Shown here piece after piece: positions 39,765-63,190 of a DNA stretch of 64,000 bases. The position numbers and the translations under genes are program-made. Every line of letters starts with the position of its first letter. Position 1 is the stretch's first letter. The stretch is from Alphaproteobacteria bacterium (lineage in GTDB: Bacteria; Pseudomonadota; Alphaproteobacteria; Micavibrionales; Micavibrionaceae). The notes below the pieces were generated by a model, which saw only the letters and a list, made by a program, of their open reading frames with translations, did no database searches and was not told the DNA's origin. The stretch is taken from assembly GCA_028289285.1 (NCBI GenBank), contig JANQRF010000007.1:127696-191695 (forward strand), given 5' to 3'.

Positions 39765-39849
39765 GGAGGTGTGGCAGAGCGGTCAAATGCACCTGACTGT
39801 AAATCAGGCGACTTCGTCTACGGTGGTTCGAATCCATCCACCTCCACCA
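39765..39849 (+). tRNA. tRNA-Tyr (anticodon GTA), CCA-encoded
   Basis: Acceptor stem GGAGGTG/CACCTCC, anticodon arm CCTGA-CTGTAAA-TCAGG, long variable arm, T-loop GGTTCGAATCC, and 3' ACCA. Length is 85 nt. Confidence 0.93.
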
Positions 39850-40014: not shown

Positions 40015-40150
40015 TTCCCTGTTTATCAGGGAATTAACAGGGAAATTTTTTACTTTTAGGATACAAAATAAAAGAAAGGCCAGAGAATCTCTCCCTTTGC
40101 TATGACTAGCTTTAAAGATAACAGGGAATTTTACAGGGACATCAGGGTAT
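40015..40150. repeat. cluster of CAGGGAA / TTCCCTG motifs downstream of and overlapping the recombinase 3' end
   Basis: TTCCCTG (40015-21), CAGGGAATT (40027-35), ACAGGGAAATT (40037-47), ACAGGGAATT (40121-30), ACAGGGAC (40133-40) and TCAGGGTAT (40142-50). Confidence 0.6.
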
Positions 40151-41666
40151 CAAAACTACCCATAATGATTTTCTGAACACCGGCCTTGGAGAGACCTTCA
40201 CGCTCTGCAATCGCTTTCATCGACATGCCGGCAAAATGCTCATCCCGCCAGACAATCCCTCTGACCAGGTTTTTGAGTTGCTGAGGCGGCAGGTCGAGAG
40301 GATCTGGTTCCTCATTCTCAGGTGTAATCACGACTGCACCTTTATAGGCACGGCGTGTGGTGAAGGGCACATTTAAGACATAGATGTTTTCTGATTTTTT
40401 CGGAATAGTGAGGTTGAGCTCTCTTTCTAAAAACTTTCGAAGTTTTGTAGCAGAGATCTCAATATTCAGGGTGTCTTTGTCTACGGTAACTTTCTCAATG
40501 CATTTTTGAACCAGATGATCTGCAGGCGGGCAGTGATCAGTGATATATTTGACCAGCTTTTCGTTATCAATGGTGTCCAGTTTTAATATATCAATAATTT
40601 CGCCTTTGAGAGCTTTACCGATGGTCTGTTCAATTTCATGAGCTGGCAGGCGTGCCATGATACCCTTTGGATGGTCCCGGTATTGAAGCAGGTTCTGGCT
40701 GACATAGTAACGATATAATTTTGCCTTCTTTTTAGCCCCAACTGGACTGTAGGGTGTTCCATCAATGTCAAAGAGCAGACCTTTTAAAAGGTTCATTTGC
40801 AGTGTCTTTTTGTGGCTACGTACAGATCCAGTTCCATGGCCTAAAAGTTTTTGAACTTTGTCCCAGGTTTCTTGGTCAATAATGGGGTCATGCTTGCCAT
40901 CATAAAGTTTGTCTTTGTGTCTGATTTTTCCAATATAGATCGGGTTTTTAAGAATGCTGTAGAGTGCTCCACGGCTATAGGGTTTACCGCCCAGCTTACT
41001 GCCACGCCTGGAGATGCGTGTTCTGCTGACAATTCCTTGTGTATCCAGATCTTTCTTTAGTTTTGCTACACATCCAAGTGCCAGATATCTGTCAAACAGA
41101 TGCCGTGCAGCTTTAGCGCCTTCTTTGTTGATGATAAGTTTCCGGTCTTTTACTTCATATCCAATAGGCGGGTTGCCCCCCATCCACATCCCTTTCTTTT
41201 TGCTGGCGGCAAATTTGTCACGAATACGTTCGGCGGATACTTCACGTTCAAACTGTGCGAAAGATAGTAGCACATTCAACGTCAAGCGACCCATCGAAGT
41301 CGTAGTATTAAAGCTCTGCGTCACACTCACAAACGTAACTTCATGTTCATCGAAGATTTCGACCAGTTTGGCGAAATCCATCAGAGAGCGTGTTAGACGA
41401 TCAATTTTATAAACGACGACAATATCAACTTTGCCTGCTTTGATGTCGACCAGAAGTTTTTGCAGGGCCGGGCGGTCCATATTCCCACCGGAAAATCCAC
41501 CGTCGTTATATTGGGTTTTAATAGCTTTCCAGCCTTCTGCACGTTGGCTGGCAACATAGGCCTCGCAGGCCTCTCGCTGAGCATCGAGCGTGTTGAAATC
41601 TGTATCCAACCCTTCATCCGTGGATTTTCTTGTATAAATCGCGCAGTTTTTTGTTGCCTGTTTCAT
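40131..41666 (-). CDS. large serine recombinase
   Basis: An N-terminal resolvase catalytic domain (AIYTRKSTDEG...VVVYKIDRLTRS) is followed by a recombinase domain and a long C-terminal region. Length is 511 aa. Confidence 0.9.
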   Translation of the reverse strand: MKQATKNCAIYTRKSTDEGLDTDFNTLDAQREACEAYVASQRAEGWKAIKTQYNDGGFSGGNMDRPALQKLLVDIKAGKVDIVVVYKIDRLTRSLMDFAKLVEIFDEHEVTFVSVTQSFNTTTSMGRLTLNVLLSFAQFEREVSAERIRDKFAASKKKGMWMGGNPPIGYEVKDRKLIINKEGAKAARHLFDRYLALGCVAKLKKDLDTQGIVSRTRISRRGSKLGGKPYSRGALYSILKNPIYIGKIRHKDKLYDGKHDPIIDQETWDKVQKLLGHGTGSVRSHKKTLQMNLLKGLLFDIDGTPYSPVGAKKKAKLYRYYVSQNLLQYRDHPKGIMARLPAHEIEQTIGKALKGEIIDILKLDTIDNEKLVKYITDHCPPADHLVQKCIEKVTVDKDTLNIEISATKLRKFLERELNLTIPKKSENIYVLNVPFTTRRAYKGAVVITPENEEPDPLDLPPQQLKNLVRGIVWRDEHFAGMSMKAIAEREGLSKAGVQKIIMGSFDTLMSL

Positions 41667-42052
41667 GATGCTTTCTTAAGTCCAAAAAAGAGATACCCAT
41701 TCCATCGTGATCCGGTGATGTCATTAGCGATTTGAGAGAGGCTAGTGTAGAGGCAATCCTGATATTCAAAGCCATCGACCTTGACGAGCACACTATGACG
41801 CTTACCCTTCCAGTTTCTGATAAGCCGTGTACCAGGCTTTAATGAACTACAGCTTCCATCAAAACATCTCGGATTATGTTTGTATTGTTTGACCAACTGC
41901 TCAAGCCGGGCCTTTTGTTCTTGTGTCAGGTTGTTTTGTTTTTTAAAGGTCAGGCTTTTTTCCATCATGCTTCGCCCAATCCGCGCATGTGGTTCCAAAC
42001 CCCACATCTTAGCCCACATTTGACGTAGTTCGTTCAGTGATAATTCGCGCAT
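41663..42052 (-). CDS. DUF2924 domain protein (serine-recombinase partner)
   Basis: ELRQMWAKMWG... and the C-terminal GTRLIRNWKGKRHSVLVKVDGFEYQDCLYTSLSQIANDITGSRWNGYLFFGL match the DUF2924 pattern as remembered. It overlaps the recombinase start by 4 nt. Confidence 0.75.
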   Translation of the reverse strand: MRELSLNELRQMWAKMWGLEPHARIGRSMMEKSLTFKKQNNLTQEQKARLEQLVKQYKHNPRCFDGSCSSLKPGTRLIRNWKGKRHSVLVKVDGFEYQDCLYTSLSQIANDITGSRWNGYLFFGLKKAS

Positions 42053-42220
42053 TTGAACCTCCTTCTAAGGTCCATACACGCTTCCTTTCGACGAGAAGTC
42101 CAGCCCAAAGAAATGATTGGTAAGACTTTCAATTACTTGAAATCTGTAAAAACAATTATGGATTTACTTGGTCATTTATGGAATCAATCAAGGGCTGTTA
42201 ATGAATCGAGTTAAGTTCTT

Positions 42221-45200
42221 ATGTCACAAATAAAAAGAGATGAAAAACCAACTATAAAACATCTTCGAGATATTCCTTCGGAGTTGGATGCTTTTGGTGG
42301 TCATGAAAAAATAGCAGCTTCTGTTAAAGAGGTTATAGACGCGCCTTTTGAAGGTGATAAGAAATATGCAAAAAAGCCAATTGGTATAGTTGGGAGGTGG
42401 GGTAGCGGAAAATCCACAGTAATAAGGCGCCTACGAAAGCTATATCAAGAAGCTTCTGATGTTTACATTTTTGAGTTTGATGCTTGGATATATGAAAATG
42501 ATCCTATTAGACGATCTTTTTTAGAAGCTTTTGTTAAGTTTCTTAGCCAAAAAGGTGTTAGCCTAACAACTGAAGAAAAATGGGAAGATCCATTAGACAG
42601 GATTAGGCGACAAAAAGAAAAACATAAAGTAGAAAGGACACCTGTATTAACTCTAGAAGGAAGATGGTTTGCTGCGTCATTACTCTTCTTTGCAATTGGT
42701 CTAAGGCTTGCAGGACATGATAACTTTCATTCTGAAGGTGAGATTTATTTCAGTTCTTTTGTGACTATCCTGATAGCTTCTCCTTTCTTGGTTCCTATAA
42801 TATCCTGGCTTCTTCGCCGGTTTTCTAATGATGAAAAGATTAGAAAACGAGATATGTTGTCTGTTTTTGTTAACAAAACGACAGATACCGTTATCAATGA
42901 AGTAACGAAAACGCCCGATCCAACAGCAATTGAGTTCCAAAAATTATTTTCAGATATTTTAGCGGATATAGGTAAGAATAATAAAAAAGCAAAAATAATA
43001 ATCGTTATTGATAACTTAGATCGTTTGCCTGAGGACAAAGCTCAGGCCATGTGGTCTACGATGCGAAGTTTTTTTATTGGGCGTGATGGAAATCATGACC
43101 ACTTTGAAAACGTTTGGGCTGTAGTGCCTATAGATCAAGGAGCTGTCTATTATATGTATGCTGATCAGGGCCATAAAGACCCAGAAAAAAGAGCAAAAGC
43201 TTACATAGAAAAAACATTTGAAATTGTTTTCAATCTTGGCCCGCCAGTTCTTTCAGATTGGGAAGATTTTATGGTGAGTATGGGTCAAGAAGCTTTTAGT
43301 GAGCTTGTATCGGAAGATGAATGGCGGAAGGTAGCTTTATTATATGACGTTTATCTCAATGAAAAAGCTGGGGAAGAGAGAAATAGAACTCAACGCGAAG
43401 CAGTAACGCCCAGAAAGATTATAAGCTTGATTAATGCTATCGGCTCAACTTATCGCCTAAATCCTGAATTCAACATACTCGTTATTGCCTTTTATTGTAT
43501 TTTTCAAGACGAAATAGAAGAACATATAAAAAACATAACCCAAGATTTTAAGTATCCTACTGCTACAGGTATATTAGGACGTAAAGATTGGCGCCAATAT
43601 GTTGCAGCCATATATTTTAATACCGACCCAGATACCGCAATGCAGGTTTTATTAGAAGACCCGCTTGCCAATTCATTGCGCGATGGCGATGTCAAAAAAT
43701 TAGAAGAGATATTTAGCCGTCCTGGTTGCTTAACAGTTGCAGAAAAAGTCGTATACAAATATGCGCCCATTTGGGCACCGTCAGAACCCCATAGACTTTT
43801 TAACTCTGCTTTTGCATTAAAAAGCTTACAAGAAAAGGATATAAATCCGCGGAAGTCTTGTTGGAAATATCTTCGCAATGCAACTGCAGAAATAGAAATG
43901 TGGCAATCTTTTGAGCCCCGGACGCCAGAAGGCATAGAAGCTTTGCTCGAGCAAACTCCTGAAAACTCTAAAGAAAGGATTTCTAAAAATATTCTAAATA
44001 GTTTGGAAAAAGTAACCAGTGATGAAGTTTTAGTGGATGATGCTTCTTCAAAAGTGTGGCTCAAGTCTTTGGGAGTAATTGATAAACATCTTGGTACCAA
44101 ATCAGACGATATCTTAAAAAGGTTTGATGCACCAGCAAACCTTGAGTTTAGAGTAAATTGTTTTCTAAGTTTCAGCGAGGATACTCCTTTACGTATAGTG
44201 CGTGTTCTGGCTTCGGGAGCTGAGGGGCAAGATCAAAAGAATTATGAGAGAGGTGTTTCCGACACCATAGCAAAAAGAGTTCAAAACTCACCTGATCTTC
44301 TGCCAAATGTATCAATAACTGTTAAGAAACTATTAGCAGTTATAAGTGATTGGGATTTAGATCTTATCATTAATAGCCTTGATGCTTCGGTTAGAAATGA
44401 AAAAAACGTATTGGTGGCATATCAAACACTAAATTACATTTTCAGAAAAGGTGGGCCGAATTCTTCAGCTGTACAAACTAAATACACACAACTTCATAAT
44501 GAAGGTTTTGTTCCAGATATACTTCATAAGTCAGTTACCGGCTCTAAATACGATGTTGCTGCATTGTGTGTTTTAAGCACGATGAAATTCAATCCGAATT
44601 TGGGTATCCAACATCATAGAGGCACATCGAACGAGGGGATGGCTTACTATAATCAATTTTTACAGGAGCCAGAAAAAGAAGGATATAAGCAATTATTAGA
44701 GCATGTTCTCAAATATGTACGTTCTATGTTCACAGCGCCAGAGCTATTAGAATTAGCGCAGGCACACCCTAATCACCAAAAACTTGTATCCAAGATATTA
44801 ATGCACTTTTTAGAGGAAGAAGGTGCAGATATTCAAATAAGTAGTGCAAATATTATTAATAACTATGATCAATATATCCAAACACTCTCTTCCGAAGGGT
44901 ATAAAAATTTGGTTGTAGTGGTCGCTCCTAAAAGGAAAGATTTTCAAGAACACCTCAATGAAAGAGATAATTTTGAGCCACTGGAACTACATAAGTTTTT
45001 ATCAAGCCTGGGGGGTGATTTTGGTAAAGGTTACGCCGAATTTGCCTTGGAAAAGCTGAAAAAGCTTGATGAAGATCAGTGGTTTAATAGTATATCTGAG
45101 GAAAATCAAAACCTTCAAATAGCGGTATCTCTTAGAAAATCTGGTAAAAACGTTAGCTTGCCAGCTTCATTTAGAGAGGCGTTAGAAAAACATACCATTG

Positions 45201-45709
45201 AAGTTTATCTAGGATCTAAAAATCCAGCACATTTAGCTGACGAATGGCATTTGTTGCCTACTTTATTGTCGCCATCACAAGAGAACACGTTCTTTGTTAA
45301 CTTGAGAGACCGATTACTTACGCTTGATTTTCAAGCTGGTTTTCATAGGGTTTTTGAGCTATTTGGCACTAAAATTTTTGAAAAAGGAGATTTCAAAGAT
45401 AAAGCTAAAGCTGATGAAGTAGCCCGCACCATAGTCATGCCGATGATAAGCGATAGCAAAGGAGTTACCTTTTTGAATAGTAACTCGCCATATATAAAAG
45501 CAATATTACCTCATTCTAAAAAAGATACACAGGAGGCTCTAATAGAAGAAATAAATAGCAAGTTACAGGATAACTATCAGAATGATAACTTTGGCGTCTA
45601 CGAAGCGGTTGCACAAAACTTAGCTCTTAAAAAATCAATTAAGTTTGCAAATGAAATAAGAAAAAAGAAAGAGCAAGAGCAGAAAGCAAAAGATAGTACG
45701 GGAGAATAA
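42221..45709 (+). CDS. KAP-family P-loop NTPase with about 700-aa uncharacterised C-terminal extension
   Basis: Walker A IGIVGRWGSGKST (aa 54-66) is present. Two hydrophobic helices are inserted in the NTPase domain (aa about 148-165 and 177-198), the KAP hallmark. A Walker B-like IIIVIDNLDRL follows. No family was recognised for aa about 460-1162. Confidence 0.8.
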   Translation: MSQIKRDEKPTIKHLRDIPSELDAFGGHEKIAASVKEVIDAPFEGDKKYAKKPIGIVGRWGSGKSTVIRRLRKLYQEASDVYIFEFDAWIYENDPIRRSFLEAFVKFLSQKGVSLTTEEKWEDPLDRIRRQKEKHKVERTPVLTLEGRWFAASLLFFAIGLRLAGHDNFHSEGEIYFSSFVTILIASPFLVPIISWLLRRFSNDEKIRKRDMLSVFVNKTTDTVINEVTKTPDPTAIEFQKLFSDILADIGKNNKKAKIIIVIDNLDRLPEDKAQAMWSTMRSFFIGRDGNHDHFENVWAVVPIDQGAVYYMYADQGHKDPEKRAKAYIEKTFEIVFNLGPPVLSDWEDFMVSMGQEAFSELVSEDEWRKVALLYDVYLNEKAGEERNRTQREAVTPRKIISLINAIGSTYRLNPEFNILVIAFYCIFQDEIEEHIKNITQDFKYPTATGILGRKDWRQYVAAIYFNTDPDTAMQVLLEDPLANSLRDGDVKKLEEIFSRPGCLTVAEKVVYKYAPIWAPSEPHRLFNSAFALKSLQEKDINPRKSCWKYLRNATAEIEMWQSFEPRTPEGIEALLEQTPENSKERISKNILNSLEKVTSDEVLVDDASSKVWLKSLGVIDKHLGTKSDDILKRFDAPANLEFRVNCFLSFSEDTPLRIVRVLASGAEGQDQKNYERGVSDTIAKRVQNSPDLLPNVSITVKKLLAVISDWDLDLIINSLDASVRNEKNVLVAYQTLNYIFRKGGPNSSAVQTKYTQLHNEGFVPDILHKSVTGSKYDVAALCVLSTMKFNPNLGIQHHRGTSNEGMAYYNQFLQEPEKEGYKQLLEHVLKYVRSMFTAPELLELAQAHPNHQKLVSKILMHFLEEEGADIQISSANIINNYDQYIQTLSSEGYKNLVVVVAPKRKDFQEHLNERDNFEPLELHKFLSSLGGDFGKGYAEFALEKLKKLDEDQWFNSISEENQNLQIAVSLRKSGKNVSLPASFREALEKHTIEVYLGSKNPAHLADEWHLLPTLLSPSQENTFFVNLRDRLLTLDFQAGFHRVFELFGTKIFEKGDFKDKAKADEVARTIVMPMISDSKGVTFLNSNSPYIKAILPHSKKDTQEALIEEINSKLQDNYQNDNFGVYEAVAQNLALKKSIKFANEIRKKKEQEQKAKDSTGE

Positions 45710-45737
45710 ATATTTTTCGTACTCCAACGTTATCACT

Positions 45738-47213
45738 TTACCAGAGCTTTTCTTCTCTTCTGACATATCTTGTTTTATGAATATCTTTTTTCATTTTATC
45801 AGTAAAACCGATAACTATGTTGTTTTTCTCATAAGACCATTCTAAAGCCTGAGACATACTGTCAATCTGATCGTCGTGGCGGCTATTGGGGAAATGCATG
45901 ATTTCGTTTTCAAAAGTAGGTAACCAATCCGCCTTATTTGGAATATAAACTTTGCCTGTTTCAATACGCGGGGTTTGCGCAATCATTCTGGTTTGTTTTT
46001 CTTGCTTGGGAATGATCGGCATGATGTTTAGCTTTGTACGTCTCTTTAAATCCTGAATAAGGGATATGCCTGACCCTTTATCTTCAATTAAAATAATACG
46101 TGCATTATATAATGCGGCGTGACGTGGGATTTGCCTTATTAAATCTGGAAATTCTAGGCGCTCTCTAAAAACATTAACGAGATACCATCCATGCTCATAT
46201 TCATACCAAGTCGTGCAGACAGAGTAATCATGAATTTCTTCTGCTTTGCTCGCAGTGTCCCAGCTTTGAAATATCTTCTTTGGGGGCTCGTCAGGTAAGC
46301 AATCGTAGCGTTTAAACCATTTGAGCTTTATTAATCCACCGCCATAGGGAGCAGGATTTTGCTGATATTGAGAAGAAAACGTGTAACTGCCTAATATTTT
46401 ATCGCGTAACTTAACAAGCTCTGCAGCACTCTCTCGCTCTGGATGTAAAGCCTCCCCAGGATTTCGAATGATCTGGTAGGCTTTGACAAAAGCGGGAGCT
46501 ATATCGATGATTTCTCTAGATTCACACAGGGCTGGTAAATTAAGATGAACCCACTCCTCTTGATTTAAAACATGGCCAACCAAATCGTCTTCATGAAGCC
46601 GCTGCATAATAATAATGATGCAGCCGTCCTTCTTATTATTTAGACGTGAGTATAATGTATTATCAAACCAGTCATTTACATTTTTTCTGCTAACTTCAGA
46701 ATGCGCTTCTTGAGGCTTAAGAGGGTCATCAATTATTAAAAAATCACCACCGCGTCCTGTCAATGTTCCGCCAACCGAGGTTGCCAGTCGAAACCCTTTT
46801 CTGGTTGTAAGGTATTCTGACTTTGTATTTGGGCTTGTTTCCAGTTTTGTATTTGGAAACAACGCTTGATAGAAATGAGATTCTATTAGTTTTCGGCAAT
46901 CAATTGAATGTTTTGTACTTAATTCTTGAGAATAGCTAGCTTGGATGATCTTTGCATTGGGGTTTTGTCCCCAAAGCCATGCAGGAAAGGCCACAGAGGC
47001 GCAGATAGACTTCATGTAGCGAGGTGGCATTGTAATGATGAGGCGCCGAATATCTCCACGAGCGCAGGCTTCTAAATGCTGTGCAATTAAGTCAATGTGC
47101 CAGTTATGAAGATAAACTTCTCCACCGGTCACAATATCAAAACTTTTTTGTATGAAAGCACTTAGGCTTTTACGCATCAGCGCCTGAAGTATAATCTTAT
47201 TATTAAGGCTCAT
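45738..47213 (-). CDS. phage terminase large subunit-like protein
   Basis: An ATPase part (ITMPPRYMKS, FLIIDDPLKP, IMQRLHEDDL) and a C-terminal RNaseH-like nuclease part are present. Length is 491 aa. Confidence 0.7.
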   Translation of the reverse strand: MSLNNKIILQALMRKSLSAFIQKSFDIVTGGEVYLHNWHIDLIAQHLEACARGDIRRLIITMPPRYMKSICASVAFPAWLWGQNPNAKIIQASYSQELSTKHSIDCRKLIESHFYQALFPNTKLETSPNTKSEYLTTRKGFRLATSVGGTLTGRGGDFLIIDDPLKPQEAHSEVSRKNVNDWFDNTLYSRLNNKKDGCIIIIMQRLHEDDLVGHVLNQEEWVHLNLPALCESREIIDIAPAFVKAYQIIRNPGEALHPERESAAELVKLRDKILGSYTFSSQYQQNPAPYGGGLIKLKWFKRYDCLPDEPPKKIFQSWDTASKAEEIHDYSVCTTWYEYEHGWYLVNVFRERLEFPDLIRQIPRHAALYNARIILIEDKGSGISLIQDLKRRTKLNIMPIIPKQEKQTRMIAQTPRIETGKVYIPNKADWLPTFENEIMHFPNSRHDDQIDSMSQALEWSYEKNNIVIGFTDKMKKDIHKTRYVRREEKLW

Positions 47214-47589
47214 TTTCTTTTCCTTTGTCTGAGCCTAGAAATCTTTCCAAGATCTTAAAGTCGGCCTCATCATTCATGATATTTTTGTTTAGACTCTGGA
47301 GCTCTTCTTCGTTGTTACTCATTTGAAGGAGAATAGGCAGTAATGTGCGTATTGCCTTTGGGTCTTGCTTTAAGGCGTTTGAGAATAGTCCTTTAACAAT
47401 AGCTTCTATTTTGCTGAGGTTTTTTGTCTCTCCATTTTCCTGAATTAGGATCATACTCTCCATTTCTTTTTTTATAAGTGTTTTCAGGTTTCTGGATTTC
47501 TTAGGCCGGCCATTTGGATTGCCAGACTTTCCTTTTTGAAACCGATTTTTATGGGGAGGTTTTTTATACCCAATTTGGTATTTACCCAT
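47203..47589 (-). CDS. DUF5681-like protein (putative small terminase/packaging accessory)
   Basis: The N-terminal FQKGKSGNPNGRPKK motif is present. The gene sits between the methyltransferase and terminase genes and overlaps both. Confidence 0.55.
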   Translation of the reverse strand: MGKYQIGYKKPPHKNRFQKGKSGNPNGRPKKSRNLKTLIKKEMESMILIQENGETKNLSKIEAIVKGLFSNALKQDPKAIRTLLPILLQMSNNEEELQSLNKNIMNDEADFKILERFLGSDKGKENEP

Positions 47590-48866
47590 TAGGAGATCTC
47601 CTTTTTCTCAAAAAATTTCTGGCTTTCGGCGTGTATGGCTACTTGTCCGGTTTCTTTTTGCCAGCGCTCAATAGTGATATCGATATAAGCTGGATCAAGC
47701 TCAATAAGCCTGGCCTGCCGGTTTGTTTTTTCAGCAGCTAGAAGGGCACTACCGCTTCCGCCAAAGCAATCCAGAACAACATCGTTCTGATTGGTGCAGT
47801 CCAAAATAGCATCTGCTATTAAAGAGACAGGCTTAACAGTAGGGTGATAGGATAAGAGCTCTGGTTTTCCATTAACGCCGTCATAGTCCCATACATTGGT
47901 GCGATATCGGCCATGTTTCCCAAGTTCAACATTATTAATGTGCTTAAGGGCACCCTTTTTGTATATGAAAATAAGCTCATGTTTGGAGCGATAAAGAGAC
48001 CCCATACCACCATTGTTTTTGTTCCAAATACACAGATTTTTAAGCTCGTCATAGTATTTATTACCTGCGGCAAGTATCTCTTCCATATGTCGCCAGTCCA
48101 TGCAGATATAATGCAAAGACCCATCAAGGCTGTGTTGGCTTAAATGCCTAAATATTGTCTCAAGAAAGTCAGTAAACTCTTCTTTGCTCATTTCACCGCT
48201 GGCCATAGCAAACTCTCTATGTTGAGTCCTTCCTTTCCCACAGACATGACCTTTAACAGGCACATTGTAGGGAGGGTCAGTGAAAACCATTCGTACTTTT
48301 TCCTGATTAAGCAAAAGTCTGAAAGACTCAGGCGATAAAGAATCGCCGCAATAAATTTGGTGATTCCCGAGGATCCACAAATCGCCTTTTTGTGTAACTG
48401 GACTTTGAGAAGGAACAGAAAGGTATTGGTCTTCTTCTTTACTATTTTTCTGATCTTCCAAAATGATCATATCTATCTCGGGCATTTCGAAACCGGTTAA
48501 ATCTATCGAAACCTCATCCTGGATATCTAATAAATGCTGAAGCTCTATGCTTAGAATGTCATTATCCCAGCCTGCTTTTTCAGCAAGTTTGTTGTCGGCC
48601 AGAATATAGGCGCGCTTTTCATTTTCACTCAGGTGATTAATACGGCGTACAGGGATAGCATCTATGCCCAGTTTGATGGCAGCCATAACACGCCCGTGAC
48701 CAGCAATAATCATATTTTCCTGGTCAATCAAAACAGGGTTAACAAAGCCAAATCGCTCAATACTGTTGGCAATTTGGGCAATTTGCCGCTTGCTATGAAT
48801 GCGTGCGTTGTTTTTATAAGGAATTAAATTTTCAGGGTCTGCATATTCCAAATTTTCGACGTCCAT
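47589..48866 (-). CDS. ParB-like N-terminal domain fused to DNA methyltransferase (N6A/N4C, DPPY type)
   Basis: A ParB/Srx-like domain (NPVLIDQENMIIAGHGRVMAA), catalytic FTDPPYNV and the SAM motif VLDCFGGSGSALLAAE are present. SD AAGGAG precedes the ATG. Confidence 0.85.
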   Translation of the reverse strand: MDVENLEYADPENLIPYKNNARIHSKRQIAQIANSIERFGFVNPVLIDQENMIIAGHGRVMAAIKLGIDAIPVRRINHLSENEKRAYILADNKLAEKAGWDNDILSIELQHLLDIQDEVSIDLTGFEMPEIDMIILEDQKNSKEEDQYLSVPSQSPVTQKGDLWILGNHQIYCGDSLSPESFRLLLNQEKVRMVFTDPPYNVPVKGHVCGKGRTQHREFAMASGEMSKEEFTDFLETIFRHLSQHSLDGSLHYICMDWRHMEEILAAGNKYYDELKNLCIWNKNNGGMGSLYRSKHELIFIYKKGALKHINNVELGKHGRYRTNVWDYDGVNGKPELLSYHPTVKPVSLIADAILDCTNQNDVVLDCFGGSGSALLAAEKTNRQARLIELDPAYIDITIERWQKETGQVAIHAESQKFFEKKEIS

Positions 48867-48949
48867 AGTTTCTCCTTTTGTTTGAGAGAATCATTATGGA
48901 TCAGGTCGAATTGTGGATGCAGAGCACACACAATCTGGACTTAAATTTT

Positions 48950-49612
48950 TTAACTTTTCTTTTCGATTGTTCTAAGATGTTGATAAATCTTGTTTTCTGT
49001 TACTTCTATGTCGTCATATATTTTGTTTTGTATTTTAGAAAAAATAATTTGAGCACGTTTTTCCCGGTTCATATTAGGATCTAAGGTGCTGTTAATATCT
49101 GTAATGTCTCTTTTAAGTTTATCGTATTTTGAAGCTCTGGATTTTCCACCTGCTACTGGTGCATCTTTATGTTTTTTGAATTTGGGCTCTACTTTGTAAG
49201 ATAGTTCTAGCATTAGACTAAGCTTCCCTAAATCTAGAAGCACTGTTGGGTGACCTCCAAGGTCCTGGCCCTCAATTTCGCATAATTTATACAGTATAGA
49301 ACGTGCTCTCCGGGCTTTAGGCGCCATGCGATCAATCACATCAGATAATACTTCTCCCTCATTTTTTGTGCTGAGAAGCTGTCTATCTATATCATGTAGA
49401 TGGCTAATGTTTTTATATCCTTCCTCTTCTAATGCCTTGCAAGCTCTAGACTCGATATTCAATAAGCGTGCTTTTATGTCGTATTGATAGTTAAACAGAT
49501 TTGAGGCCTTTTCGCATAGATCCCAAAATGTCTGTTCATCCTCATCGATAGAGCAACTTAAAGAATGTCTTTCAAATATACCGCTATCAGTTATTTTCTC
49601 GCTTTTTCTCAT
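48950..49612 (-). CDS. hypothetical protein (220 aa, mostly helical)
   Basis: An ORF with AAGGA 9-10 nt upstream of its ATG. It overlaps the end of the upstream zinc-ribbon gene by 26 nt, suggesting an operon. No family was recognised. Confidence 0.45.
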   Translation of the reverse strand: MRKSEKITDSGIFERHSLSCSIDEDEQTFWDLCEKASNLFNYQYDIKARLLNIESRACKALEEEGYKNISHLHDIDRQLLSTKNEGEVLSDVIDRMAPKARRARSILYKLCEIEGQDLGGHPTVLLDLGKLSLMLELSYKVEPKFKKHKDAPVAGGKSRASKYDKLKRDITDINSTLDPNMNREKRAQIIFSKIQNKIYDDIEVTENKIYQHLRTIEKKS

Positions 49613-50144
49613 TTTTTAAATCCTTGTGATAAATTCTTTGACCAGACCTTGTTGTGAAGGATATTTTGCATTTTGAAATCGCAGGATTTCTTCTGCTCAT
49701 AATTTTAAAAGGAGAGGTTTGATTTGGTAATAGAGGGCTATACTCAATAAGCCCATCATCAGATTTTACAAAGCTTCCGTCATCTTTTCTAAAATTACCA
49801 ACAACTCTCAAATTCTTTAAGGGCGTATCCGCAATATTTTTTACTTCTCCTTCAATAATCATATAGCCATGGTCCTCATAGCACGACCAGGATGCAACTT
49901 CTAAAAGTTGTGTATATGGTGTGTTCTGTGGATTAATTTTTTTCTGTTCAGGCTGGGATTGAGTCTGAACATTTTGGCTAGTCTCAGGCGGCTCTGTAAA
50001 TTTTCCTAGAGCGATAACGCCTAAAATGAACAGTACAAATATAAGGGGAAGAGACAGCTTTTTAGGTTTAGCCCCGCAATTCAGACAGGACTTTGCATTC
50101 TTGCTAATTTCATGATCGCATTCTTTACATTTCACTAAAGCCAT
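49587..50144 (-). CDS. zinc-ribbon / single-TM / FxLYD-like domain protein
   Basis: An N-terminal CKECDHEISKNAKSCLNCG zinc ribbon and a TM helix (LSLPLIFVLFILGVIALG) are present. The C-terminal beta-rich domain resembles FxLYD-domain proteins as remembered. SD AAGGAG lies 8 nt before the ATG. Confidence 0.6.
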   Translation of the reverse strand: MALVKCKECDHEISKNAKSCLNCGAKPKKLSLPLIFVLFILGVIALGKFTEPPETSQNVQTQSQPEQKKINPQNTPYTQLLEVASWSCYEDHGYMIIEGEVKNIADTPLKNLRVVGNFRKDDGSFVKSDDGLIEYSPLLPNQTSPFKIMSRRNPAISKCKISFTTRSGQRIYHKDLKNEKKRENN

Positions 50145-50164
50145 TTCAAAACTCCTTTCGATGT

Positions 50165-50341
50165 TAAAAAGTCACCAAGATTGCTCTTGGTGACCGGGAG
50201 TTTATAAGCTGCGTTGAAACAACCGCGACGATCTTTAGCCGCGAGGCTTGGACATACATCGCCGCCTCCCGGACATAAGACCGAAAGGCGACATCATTCC
50301 GGCTGATGTCAGCCGTTCAACGCAGGGTTATAAAGCCCCGG
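50165..50341 (-). ncRNA. candidate structured RNA (leader/riboswitch-like or sRNA), unclassified
   Basis: A GC-rich block sits in an AT-rich spacer. An interrupted 22-bp closing helix (50194-50218 with 50316-50341) encloses internal hairpins at 50301-50314 and 50237-50248. Alternative pairings exist, and a terminator follows. Confidence 0.4.
50166..50194 (-). terminator. intrinsic terminator at the 3' end of the RNA candidate, 21 nt before the zinc-ribbon gene ATG
   Basis: Read on the minus strand: a 9-bp stem GUCACCAAG-AGCAAU-CUUGGUGAC followed by UUUUU. There is no T-run on the plus strand, so the element is orientation-specific. Confidence 0.6.
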
Positions 50342-50368
50342 AAAGCACAAAATTGCGCTTACACGAGT

Positions 50369-50398
50369 AAATTAGCTCGAAGTTACGATATGTATCAA
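50369..50398 (-). promoter_or_regulatory. possible sigma70-type promoter for the RNA candidate
   Basis: Minus strand reads TTGATA (50398-50393), an 18-nt spacer, then TAATTT (50374-50369). This is a weak, eye-only call. Confidence 0.25.
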
Positions 50399-50466
50399 GC
50401 TATTGTTTTATAGAAATAAAATTCATAGTTTTGTAATTCAAATACATAATCTATAAAACTATTGAG

Positions 50467-51102
50467 ATGAATGAAGCACTTATCAACTATAACTTTATGA
50501 AAGGCCGTCTGGCTGAGGCAATTATCGAGAGATTATTTGTCTCTCTTGGGATGGACGTCTACCCAGTCGGCTTTGAAGCACAATTACCTCGTTTGGCGAG
50601 GTTAAAAGCATCTGGCAAATTAAAACCAAGTGCCATTACCAAGTTTGAATACGGACCCGATTTTATTGTCTGTGATAATGATCCAAAAAATAAGGGAGAA
50701 AATGAAGCGTTTGAAGTAGAGGTTAAATTTAGATCTGGAAGTGATATCAATATATTTGAACTTCGTAAGTATGAAAGTCAGGACTTAATTTTTCTTTTTA
50801 TAAATAAAGAAAAGATCTACTGCATAGAAAACAAAGAAATAGAAAAACTGCCCAAGCACTTCATCAAAACTAAAAACGGTAAAAATATGCCAATGGTGTC
50901 TTTTGAAGATTGTATTTTACTAGAGCATCATAATAGATTCCGCTTTAATAAGAAGCAAAGAGATAAAATAAGATATTTTTCAGCGCTAATTAACGCTTCG
51001 CTGAACCATTTTAAAGAAGAATGGAAAGTGAAACAGGATCTTCTAGAATGTTTTGAAGGGGATAAAGAAAAACTCAATTCTGTTTGTGAGAGAATAGGGT
51101 AA
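50467..51102 (+). CDS. PD-(D/E)xK nuclease-fold-like protein (candidate)
   Basis: GPDFIV (D65), then 17 residues, then FEVEVK (E85-x-K87), preceded by a helix with conserved acidic residues (RLAEAIIERL). This matches the restriction-endonuclease-like core pattern. There is no recognisable DNA-binding domain. Confidence 0.5.
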   Translation: MNEALINYNFMKGRLAEAIIERLFVSLGMDVYPVGFEAQLPRLARLKASGKLKPSAITKFEYGPDFIVCDNDPKNKGENEAFEVEVKFRSGSDINIFELRKYESQDLIFLFINKEKIYCIENKEIEKLPKHFIKTKNGKNMPMVSFEDCILLEHHNRFRFNKKQRDKIRYFSALINASLNHFKEEWKVKQDLLECFEGDKEKLNSVCERIG

Positions 51103-51164
51103 GTTAGACCAAAATATTTCCATAGTAAATGTGATAATATGCCGTATGAAAATGCTAAAGTATT

Positions 51165-61648: not shown

Positions 61649-63190
61649 TTAGGGTGTGACTGTGCAAACCACCATTTTAGATTTTCCAGCCTCAAAATCT
61701 TTCAAGACCTTGAATGGAAGCGACATAGCGGCGGTTCCAAATCCATTTTCCTTGCAGTACGGGATTTTTTTAGCAAAGGCGAGCTTTAAAACCAGACGTT
61801 TATCTTCAAAGTCGCCGTTTTCCCATATGGACAGCGGATTTTCTATGAAATCGAAAACGGTTCCAACTGCACCTTCAAGGCTGGTGTCAACGCCAAACAT
61901 CTCACGCGCCTGCGCTGATAGTGCATCACGCTCTAATCTGAGCTTTTTGACATGATCTTCGTACATGCGGATCATATCTTTATCCTGTGTTTCTAAAAGG
62001 CGAGCCATAAATCCGTTTATCTCAGTCTCCAGAGCTTTTACCGCCTTATCTAACTCGACCATGTTTTGTGCATGTTCTGATTTTTTGCGCTTCCACGTGT
62101 CAGATATAATTTCTCTCGTCAGATCAAGAATTGTATCTGATGGCGTCATACTCTTTAAAATATCCAAAAATTGATTTTGAACCCTATCGCGCTTTAAACT
62201 TTTGCCATACATGCGACACTCTTTGTTTTTGCAACTGTAGTAAGGGTGTTTTTTCTTATTCCGACCTGTCGACCAGCTTGCCGTCATGGGCTGTCCACAT
62301 GAGCTGCATACAACAAATCCGCGCAAAGGAAAGTCTTCATTTAAATCGTTTCTGTATGGTACTTTTGCCCTGAGGCCAAGGCGTTCTTGCACGCGTAAAA
62401 ATATCTCTGAAGAAATCAAAGCCGGATGTTTTCCCGGCCGCAGAGAGACATCCCAAGGCTTGTATTCAATCTGACCCGTGTAAAGGACGTTGGTCAGAAT
62501 GTTTTTGACCGAGGATGGATGAACTTTTTTTCCAAAAGCGCCTGTGCTTGCCAAAAAATGGGCGACGTCAGCTTGGGTTTCAAAGCGCCCAGAAGCAAAC
62601 CCTTCAAATGCTTCTGTGATGTATGTTGCTCTTGGTTCATCTCTTTCAAGAATTTTGCCCGCTCCTGAAATATTTTTGACATACCTATATCCAGATGGTC
62701 TGCCGAAGAGCCAATACCCATTTTTTAAACGCGCGGTTTGGCGGTTTATAACCTGCTCTCTGTTTGCGACGCGCTGGTATGACGCCATAGAAACCATAAT
62801 TTCTGTAATCAGCATTTCATCTGATTTTGATCCAAATTTATGACTTGGCGATGCGAGCCGCGCGCCTCTGGCAGTAAGTTGAGCTGAAAACTCAATAAAA
62901 GCTGACTGGCTGCGTGCTACACGGCTGACGCCGTCCACAATGACGGTCACACTATCTTTTTGCGTATCTAAAAAAGCAAACAGCTCTTTTGTTGCAGGCC
63001 TCATATCAGGGCCAAGTCCGCCTGAGATACCCTCATCTTTAAAAACACGCATGACTTTAAAGCCGCGCCGTTCAGCATACTCCCGGCATCGCGTTTCCTG
63101 TGACCTTAAGCCATCCCCCTCACGCACTTGACGCTCACTGGAAACACGGCAGTAGATGATGGCTTTATTTTGTTTCTGTATTTCTTTCAT
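61649..63190 (-). CDS. large serine recombinase
   Basis: AIIYCRVSSERQ (catalytic Ser) and VIVDGVSRVARS are present, followed by a recombinase domain and a Cys-rich zinc-ribbon segment (CSSCGQPM...YYSCKNKEC). Length is 513 aa. Confidence 0.9.
   Translation of the reverse strand: MKEIQKQNKAIIYCRVSSERQVREGDGLRSQETRCREYAERRGFKVMRVFKDEGISGGLGPDMRPATKELFAFLDTQKDSVTVIVDGVSRVARSQSAFIEFSAQLTARGARLASPSHKFGSKSDEMLITEIMVSMASYQRVANREQVINRQTARLKNGYWLFGRPSGYRYVKNISGAGKILERDEPRATYITEAFEGFASGRFETQADVAHFLASTGAFGKKVHPSSVKNILTNVLYTGQIEYKPWDVSLRPGKHPALISSEIFLRVQERLGLRAKVPYRNDLNEDFPLRGFVVCSSCGQPMTASWSTGRNKKKHPYYSCKNKECRMYGKSLKRDRVQNQFLDILKSMTPSDTILDLTREIISDTWKRKKSEHAQNMVELDKAVKALETEINGFMARLLETQDKDMIRMYEDHVKKLRLERDALSAQAREMFGVDTSLEGAVGTVFDFIENPLSIWENGDFEDKRLVLKLAFAKKIPYCKENGFGTAAMSLPFKVLKDFEAGKSKMVVCTVTP

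Follow-up and report, generated by a model that had tools for sequence, protein, structure and literature searches.

Prophages and phage satellites, such as those of the P2 and P4 type, reportedly harbor hotspots for defence and other cargo genes, which Rousset and colleagues are said to have described in 2022. In lambdoid phages, the late operon consists of a promoter, a short terminated leader (the 6S RNA, ending at tR′) and the late genes, including those for the terminase. The RNA family sRNA-Xcc1 (RF02221) is known from integron cassettes, transposons, plasmids, APSE phages, and an island of Xylella. According to Pennell et al. (2014, PMC4103454), the VRR-Nuc proteins that occur on their own in bacteria and viruses are similar in structure to Holliday junction resolvases. 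Likenesses to all of these were found at one end of a predicted integrative element of approximately 11 kb in an alphaproteobacterium of the family Micavibrionaceae (assembly GCA_028289285.1). The stretch of DNA analyzed, referred to below as the window, comprises 64,000 nucleotides (nt) of contig JANQRF010000007.1 (positions 127,696 to 191,695 of the forward strand), and coordinates are counted from its first letter.

Three open reading frames (ORFs) occupy this end of the element. Two of them overlap by 26 nt on the minus strand, namely, an ORF of 185 amino acids (aa) encoding a predicted zinc-ribbon membrane protein (49587-50144) and an ORF of 220 aa encoding an orphan protein (48950-49612). 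The third, encoding a 211-aa protein of the PD-(D/E)xK nuclease type, lies on the plus strand (50467-51102). A preliminary description had proposed that the three genes constitute a compact defence, abortive-infection or addiction module within an AT-rich mobile island. The component parts were described correctly: the coordinates and lengths of the ORFs, the overlap of the minus-strand pair, the single-pass membrane protein with its zinc-ribbon-like cysteine pattern, the nuclease core, the RNA between the divergent genes, and the island setting are all borne out by the evidence presented below.

The module itself is rejected because the 211-aa family was in no case found together with relatives of the other two proteins, an outcome that the preliminary description itself had named as refuting the idea. 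A relative of the zinc-ribbon protein, a relative of the 220-aa protein and the leader RNA that precedes the minus-strand pair were all absent from the three close and 80 distant nuclease loci compared. The homologues of the 220-aa protein accompany genes for a ParB-methyltransferase, a DUF5681 protein, and the terminase large subunit (TerL) instead, in one case without any zinc-ribbon gene. Furthermore, no family of PADLOC-DB 2.0 matched any of the three proteins at E ≤ 0.1. The three ORFs are probably accessory genes that evolve independently of one another, situated at the end of the element farthest from the recombinase, rather than one system. Their evolutionary behaviours are different, with the nuclease gene standing alone, the 220-aa gene travelling with packaging genes, and the zinc-ribbon gene belonging to a cargo slot behind the leader RNA. 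The three genes do not form the proposed defence system, which is not worth pursuing as a unit. The value of the analysis lies in assigning each gene to its true genetic context and in narrowing what merits testing; the element family and its leader RNA are more interesting objects than the three-gene set.

Predicted Stand-Alone Nuclease

A word-index search with the 211-aa protein yielded six clear and two marginal homologues. In the resulting alignment of nine sequences, K12, G13, A16, E17, E21, E37, P64, D65, F66, E85, V86, K87, F88, and R89 are invariant, and E17, E37, P64, D65, E85, and K87 stay invariant in an alignment of 42 members of the family. D65, E85, and K87 are the residues that had been singled out as the nuclease core in the preliminary description. 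In the AlphaFold2 (AF2) model, which was built on the homologue alignment and has a predicted local distance difference test score (pLDDT) of 83.7 and a predicted template modelling score of 0.78, the conserved motif residues map to a helix (residues 2-26) and two strands (66-70 and 81-88). The catalytic pattern expected of the superfamily, with a glutamate in the first helix, (P)D at the second strand, and (D/E)xK in the third, is present. The modelled core (residues 8-137) is VRR-Nuc/Hjc-like and is followed by a helical C-terminal extension. Foldseek comparison of the model with the PDB returned top matches that are all PD-(D/E)xK enzymes (best E = 2.3e-4, probability 1.00). They include the archaeal Hjc-type Holliday junction resolvases 2eo0, 2wiw, and 1gef, the SPARDA nuclease 9qcc, I-Ssp6803I, RecU, and influenza PA-N. 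Sequence and profile searches of both the 211-aa and the 220-aa proteins against PDB chains gave nothing useful, and matches to UreE and to the ribosomal proteins S8 and S4 were discarded as spurious.

The 211-aa protein is a member of a previously unnamed, stand-alone VRR-Nuc/Hjc-like branch, for which at least 226 more relatives were found in a metagenome scan with the alignment as query. These distant relatives share 25-38% identity over residues ~8-137 and are typically ~151 aa long, and many of their loci are of marine or aquatic origin. The Pfam family VRR_NUC (PF08774) is weakly matched by 32 of the 42 family members, with a best E of 2e-4 that is below the threshold. The window protein itself has no VRR_NUC match at E ≤ 0.1, and the Pfam gathering threshold is not reached. 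In common with the VRR-Nuc/Hjc nucleases, the 211-aa protein is small, single-domain, and partner-free, and it has an alpha-beta-beta-beta core with the E...PD...ExK residues. It differs from them in the sub-threshold Pfam scores of its family and in a helical C-terminal extension of ~70 residues, which is missing in the ~151-aa majority of the family. Profile comparison revealed no kinship with the PDDEXK_5-like nucleases that are found behind the leader RNA in two sister elements (L027 and L039).

One close homologue, in locus L005, is 78% identical to the window protein, and its gene overlaps a MobA/VirD2-type relaxase gene by 4 nt (L005:8259-10639). This nuclease/relaxase pair is located downstream of a NikA-like gene, and DNA similarity between the window and L005 is limited to the nuclease ORF. 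The L005 copy suggests that the nuclease gene moved recently between a mobilisable element and this island. A 222-aa neighbour in L005 was considered as a relative of the 220-aa protein and proved to be unrelated. The other two close homologues adjoin a cNMP-binding regulator and MurJ, respectively, so that the three contexts have nothing in common. Among 186 ORFs situated within two genes of the nuclease in the 80 distant loci (L062-L141), no cluster is common to three or more loci. The 211-aa gene is judged solitary because the neighbourhoods of these 83 loci show no recurrent partner, and its product is regarded as a solitary, VRR-Nuc/Hjc-like predicted structure-specific DNA endonuclease of a family without a fixed partner. 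The gene would have been acquired as single-gene cargo, with its own promoter and on the strand opposite to the neighbouring operon. Neither the 211-aa nor the 220-aa gene is present among 40 related genomes, and the phage and plasmid collections contained no match for either protein.

Orphan 220-aa Protein

An exhaustive HMMER search with the 220-aa protein returned only two true homologues among 1.84 billion representative proteins, which makes it a true orphan family of three known members. The homologues are 219 and 223 aa long and show 34% and 37% identity, respectively, with aligned N-termini. The 220-aa ORF is considered to be a real gene because two such divergent homologues keep its length and N-terminus. 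Both are encoded immediately upstream of a ParB-N/N6_N4 methyltransferase, DUF5681, and TerL (loci L010 and L011), and thus all three members stand alongside a ParB-methyltransferase/terminase set that lacks head genes. In L011, the gene order is leader RNA, zinc-ribbon protein, 223-aa protein, ParB-methyltransferase, DUF5681, TerL, a 77-aa ORF, DUF2924, and a large serine recombinase, which repeats the whole order of the window; here, the zinc-ribbon and 223-aa genes overlap by 14 nt. In L010, the 219-aa gene comes right after a conserved end site, with no leader RNA, zinc-ribbon gene, or 211-aa gene. The 220-aa family tracks the TerL-bearing lineage regardless of the leader and the zinc-ribbon gene.

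The AF2 model of the 220-aa protein is all-helical (pLDDT 70.9), with a basic low-confidence linker (residues 139-156) followed by a small C-terminal helical domain. Foldseek searches of the 220-aa model against the PDB and BFVD gave nothing with E < 0.3. Sigma-factor chains among the matches were scattered, with E > 1, and were not taken as evidence. Pfam scans of all three family members detected nothing. No relatives of the 220-aa or zinc-ribbon proteins were obtained in the word-index search, and the 220-aa family was not detected when genome, viral, and metagenome contigs were scanned for its sequence pattern. Weak VapB-antitoxin-like matches in the 220-aa protein (Pfam E = 0.016; NCBIfam E = 8e-4) are far below the cut-offs. 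The most likely role of this protein, put forward tentatively, would be that of a nucleic-acid-binding accessory protein or regulator of the ParB-methyltransferase/terminase set.

Leader RNA and the Predicted Five-Gene Operon

The region between the divergent genes contains a GC-rich element that, on the minus strand, folds far better than shuffled sequence (z = -7.2). It corresponds to a structured, sRNA-Xcc1-like leader RNA of ~190 nt (50162-50345, minus strand), which was delineated by its fold, covariation, and a sub-threshold RF02221 match. An intrinsic terminator, with its stem at 50195-50171 and its T-run at 50170-50166 (minus strand), closes the leader 21 nt ahead of the ATG of the zinc-ribbon gene; a GGAG ribosome-binding site lies in between. 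Four copies of the leader RNA are present in this 2.08-Mb genome (G000); the other three are at C4:48816, C4:194383, and C1:1073069, and C4:194383 is ~2.7 kb past the end of the window. All four align to the full RF02221 model (87 nt) with 30.3-32.1 bits (32.1 bits for the window copy) and do not reach the gathering score of 53. A 24-nt invariant core of the leader was detected at 47 loci, whose hosts are Alphaproteobacteria (many of them Micavibrio-like), Verrucomicrobiota, Bdellovibrionales, Planctomycetota, and one gammaproteobacterium. The RNA was absent from the viral contigs and phage records searched. In an alignment of 44 copies, compensatory double changes occur in 28 of the 47 consensus pairs. 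In L011, a copy immediately precedes the zinc-ribbon orthologue and shows much stronger conservation than the encoded proteins.

A putative sigma-70-type promoter precedes the leader (50369-50398, minus strand), consisting of a -35 box TTGATA (50398-50393), an 18-nt spacer, and a -10 box TAATTT (50374-50369). The motif TTGATAC...GAGCTAAYGT is kept upstream of the RNA in seven other loci (L011, L018, L022, L027, L033, L039, and L042), and this conservation points to a promoter function. At nearly all leader loci an ORF starts 0-40 nt past the T-run; secreted or membrane proteins are numerous among the products, which also comprise nucleases and UzuA. The arrangement has the appearance of a portable cassette of promoter, leader, and terminator that is related to sRNA-Xcc1. 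The 3′ half of the leader aligns to the entire sRNA-Xcc1 model, and both RNAs are tied to mobile elements. Unlike sRNA-Xcc1, the leader is about twice as long, has a conserved promoter and a terminator of its own, and stands immediately ahead of an ORF. It looks, from this arrangement, cis-acting rather than like a free trans-acting small RNA.

From the conserved promoter, a five-gene operon would be transcribed, comprising the genes for the zinc-ribbon protein, the 220-aa protein, a ParB-N/N6_N4 DNA methyltransferase fusion (47589-48866, minus strand; N6_N4_Mtase 4e-29, phrog_498 3e-129), the DUF5681 protein at the small-terminase position (47203-47589, minus strand; Pfam DUF5681 1.3e-22), and TerL as gene 5 (45738-47213, minus strand; phrog_38 3e-121, Terminase_6C 2e-13). 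The two overlapping minus-strand genes had been described as an operon by themselves; the pair does exist, but it is not self-contained and represents cistrons 1 and 2 of this longer predicted unit. Transcription would have to cross the structured leader and its intrinsic terminator before the first start codon. As there is no space for a second promoter after the leader, the operon is probably expressed only upon read-through of the leader terminator. A comparable organization is found in the lambdoid late operons, which share with this locus a promoter, a terminated leader (~190 nt here), and an operon with terminase genes, for which read-through is expected. In contrast to these operons, no Q-like antiterminator was identified at this locus and no virion genes follow. 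In addition, the leader is much better conserved than the genes behind it and heads unrelated genes elsewhere.

Zinc-Ribbon Protein and the Cargo Slot behind the Leader

The first cistron behind the leader encodes the 185-aa protein, in which four N-terminal cysteines (C6-x2-C9...C20-x2-C23) are followed by a single strongly hydrophobic segment (residues 29-47). Its zinc-ribbon scores in Pfam (PF13240, 22.9 bits; PF12773, 22.1 bits) are below the respective cut-offs of 25 and 27.3. The similarity to FxLYD (NF038353) over residues 93-155 is a resemblance only, as the score of 21.0 bits (E = 2.2e-4) misses the cut-off of 23 bits. The L011 orthologue, at the equivalent position, is 46% identical. 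The protein also matches phrog_14275 (E = 1.4e-14), and shares with the phage proteins of this family a predicted N-terminal CxxC...CxxC ribbon, one transmembrane helix, and an extracytoplasmic beta-rich domain; on the other hand, the similarity is distant and the family carries no function in its annotation. In the Clostridioides phage phiSemix9P1, a distant relative is encoded by a solitary accessory gene.

The context of the zinc-ribbon gene was assessed by comparing 52 RNA-bearing loci. In 11 of them, variable genes occupying 0.7-1.7 kb separate the RNA from the ParB-methyltransferase behind it. DUF5681 comes after the methyltransferase in all 11 loci, and DUF2924 and the serine recombinase are present wherever the fetched sequence extends far enough. 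TerL is found only in L011 and L043 among these 11 and also in the RNA-less locus L010. UzuA, of the Uzume system, is encoded in L018 (PADLOC E = 2.7e-91; L018:1459-2280, plus strand), and copies with 60-72% identity occur in L033, L040, L059, and L032. The uzuA gene is directly behind the leader in L032 and L059 and comes after one lipoprotein-like gene in L018, L033, and L040; it is followed by the ParB-methyltransferase in L018, L033, and L059. Other slot proteins are Mrr_cat in L043, a NERD-like protein in L022, a PDDEXK_5-like protein in L039 with a 45% identical relative in L027, and further zinc-ribbon transmembrane proteins in L038 and L042. RNA copies without a nearby ParB-methyltransferase are followed by a GIY-YIG protein in L053 and by a zinc-ribbon transmembrane protein in L014.

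Judged from these gene orders, the position right behind the leader appears to be a swappable cargo slot. As in the P2/P4 hotspots, a fixed backbone surrounds one position at which unrelated defence-type genes are exchanged between relatives. The slot differs from those hotspots in its backbone, which consists of serine recombinase/DUF2924 and ParB-methyltransferase/DUF5681 with or without TerL, and in the conserved structured leader, complete with a terminator, that precedes it; moreover, a defence role of the zinc-ribbon and 220-aa proteins at this locus is putative. A role in defence or exclusion is plausible for the zinc-ribbon gene because sister elements hold UzuA and nucleases in that slot, an argument from position only. 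The zinc-ribbon/FxLYD-like protein would thus most likely be an envelope-located exclusion or defence-type cargo protein, although this assignment, too, is a tentative one.

Predicted Integrative Element

Both ends of the element are marked by conserved sites. The recombinase-proximal site, TTCCCTGTTTATCAGGGAATTAACAGGGAA (40015-40044), is a conserved 30-mer and a probable attachment-site (att) arm. In L011, L018, and L022, it recurs with one to three changes ~145 nt downstream of the serine recombinase gene, and in L042 it adjoins a recombinase-like match. The right-end site (51113-51137), the reverse complement of which is TTATCACATTTACTATGGAAATATT, is likewise conserved, its sequence being found with two changes directly upstream of the 219-aa gene in L010. 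The limits of the element are placed at about 40015-51137 because the conserved end sites there coincide with a drop in GC content, which is 36-41% across 42-51 kb of the window versus 46-49% in the host genes beyond. With the right end at 51113-51137, the 211-aa gene therefore lies inside the predicted element, between the leader promoter and the right end. The left flank contains a tRNA-Tyr(GTA) gene (39765-39849, plus strand; ARAGORN; Rfam tRNA 62.5 bits), whose 3′ end points toward the element. On this basis, the region is interpreted as an ~11-kb serine-recombinase integrative element beside tRNA-Tyr, and the 30-nt site next to the tRNA gene is probably the attachment-site arm of the DUF2924-coupled serine recombinase. 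The same 30-nt site (TTCCCTGTTTAWCAGGGAATTAACAGGGAA, 40015-40044) contains an inverted repeat. Direct repeats flanking the element were not found, as would be anticipated with a serine recombinase. Positions 40160 and 48882 share an 18-nt inverted match, which was dismissed as being at chance level.

The large serine recombinase (511 aa; 40131-41666, minus strand) is supported by Pfam matches to Resolvase (6e-39) and Recombinase (9.5e-14). Its gene is overlapped by 4 nt by that of the DUF2924 protein (41663-42052, minus strand; Pfam 4e-35). The DUF2924/recombinase pair is also present in L011, L018, L022, L027, L033, and L038, and in L039 DUF2924 is near the end of the fetched stretch. The backbone of the element would consist of this pair and the head-less packaging set (ParB-methyltransferase, DUF5681, and TerL). 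A KAP-family P-loop NTPase of 1162 aa is encoded between TerL and DUF2924 (42221-45709, plus strand; Pfam KAP_NTPase 9e-23) and gives weak N-terminal PADLOC matches of the QatA/PifA type. None of the 52 RNA-bearing loci contains a counterpart, and the gene is cargo at a second variable position. All the genes between the end sites are assigned, and none of them is a capsid, portal, tail, or other structural virion gene. In the sister loci L018 and L022, the span from the RNA to the recombinase is only 4.5-5.8 kb. By its gene content, namely an integrase plus packaging genes, the element would fit a phage satellite or capsid-less packaging island.

Alternative Explanations

Several arguments weigh against the interpretation of the three ORFs as separate accessory genes of such an element. 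The operon structure and the terminator read-through are deduced from sequence, and the excision of the element and its att crossover points are putative. An empty-site comparison showed no empty site, the relatives being too divergent at the DNA level. The 211-aa gene, which is part of the same element and is oriented divergently from the leader promoter, may be subject to co-regulation. The link of the 220-aa gene to the packaging genes could reflect shared ancestry, since only three loci are known. Finally, the zinc-ribbon and 220-aa genes overlap in two of the three loci (26 nt in the window and 14 nt in L011). This overlap also favors the view that the two genes form a new two-gene anti-phage or superinfection-exclusion system in the cargo slot, switched on via the leader, in which a membrane sensor or anchor would cooperate with a cytoplasmic partner. 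The presence of the named defence gene uzuA and of nucleases in the leader slot of sister elements is consistent with such a system, as is the KAP NTPase on the same island; in addition, identity to the L011 copies is lower for the two proteins (46% and 36%) than for the backbone (62-67% for ParB-methyltransferase and TerL), a sign of faster divergence. However, the 219-aa homologue in L010 has no accompanying zinc-ribbon gene, the zinc-ribbon transmembrane proteins behind the leader in L014, L038, and L042 have no 220-aa relative, and there is neither a PADLOC match nor a recognizable effector domain. A two-gene system of this kind is thus unlikely. Also improbable is the disjunction in which either the two proteins are a new exclusion or defence system in the RNA-gated slot of a capsid-less terminase island, or the 220-aa protein targets the set of ParB-methyltransferase, DUF5681, and TerL to DNA of the island itself. 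If the latter is true, the 220-aa protein would be a new specificity or regulatory factor for the packaging set.

The overlap of the two genes, together with the weak VapB-like matches in the 220-aa protein, might also suggest a toxin-antitoxin pair. As these matches cover only ~35 residues far below the cut-offs, the partner is missing in L010, which argues against an obligate pair, and sizes of 185 and 220 aa with a membrane/periplasmic architecture are atypical, this is the least likely of the explanations weighed here. Readings in which the nuclease is functionally tied to its neighbours fare little better. A split restriction-modification or addiction pair of the 211-aa nuclease and the ParB-methyltransferase, which would stabilize the island, is suggested by the distance of 1.6 kb between the two genes within one element and by a distant nuclease relative in L127 that adjoins a methyltransferase-like gene. 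It is nevertheless very unlikely, given that 11 related ParB-methyltransferase loci have no 211-aa relative, no DNA methyltransferase gene adjoins those of the close nuclease homologues, and the best matches of the 211-aa family are structure-specific resolvase-type nucleases rather than restriction enzymes; besides, ParB-methyltransferase fusions beside terminase genes are common in phages (phrog_498). The originally proposed unit of all three genes, with the PD-(D/E)xK protein as the effector, can draw on the adjacent and divergent arrangement within one island and on the supported nuclease fold. It is extremely improbable in view of the lack of co-occurrence in the 83 nuclease loci and the 52 RNA-bearing loci, the attachment of the 220-aa gene to packaging genes, and the empty PADLOC result for all three proteins. 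The interpretation as separately evolving accessory genes is the one that accommodates the solitary nuclease, the TerL-linked 220-aa family, and the exchangeable zinc-ribbon gene.

Neighbouring Features

In the metagenome contig of L011, the region upstream of the element (L011:1-5700) contains NAPRTase-like, PRPP-synthetase-like, and cytidylyltransferase-like (NMNAT-type) genes, which are reminiscent of phage NAD+ reconstitution genes, and an unassigned 1018-aa ORF is located just before the leader RNA. The window also encodes another serine recombinase, at about 62375-63178 on the minus strand, which is distantly related to the first (25% identity over 285 aa) and whose distance from it was put at ~11 kb. 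Together with the further leader copy just outside the window, it may belong to a second mobile element nearby.

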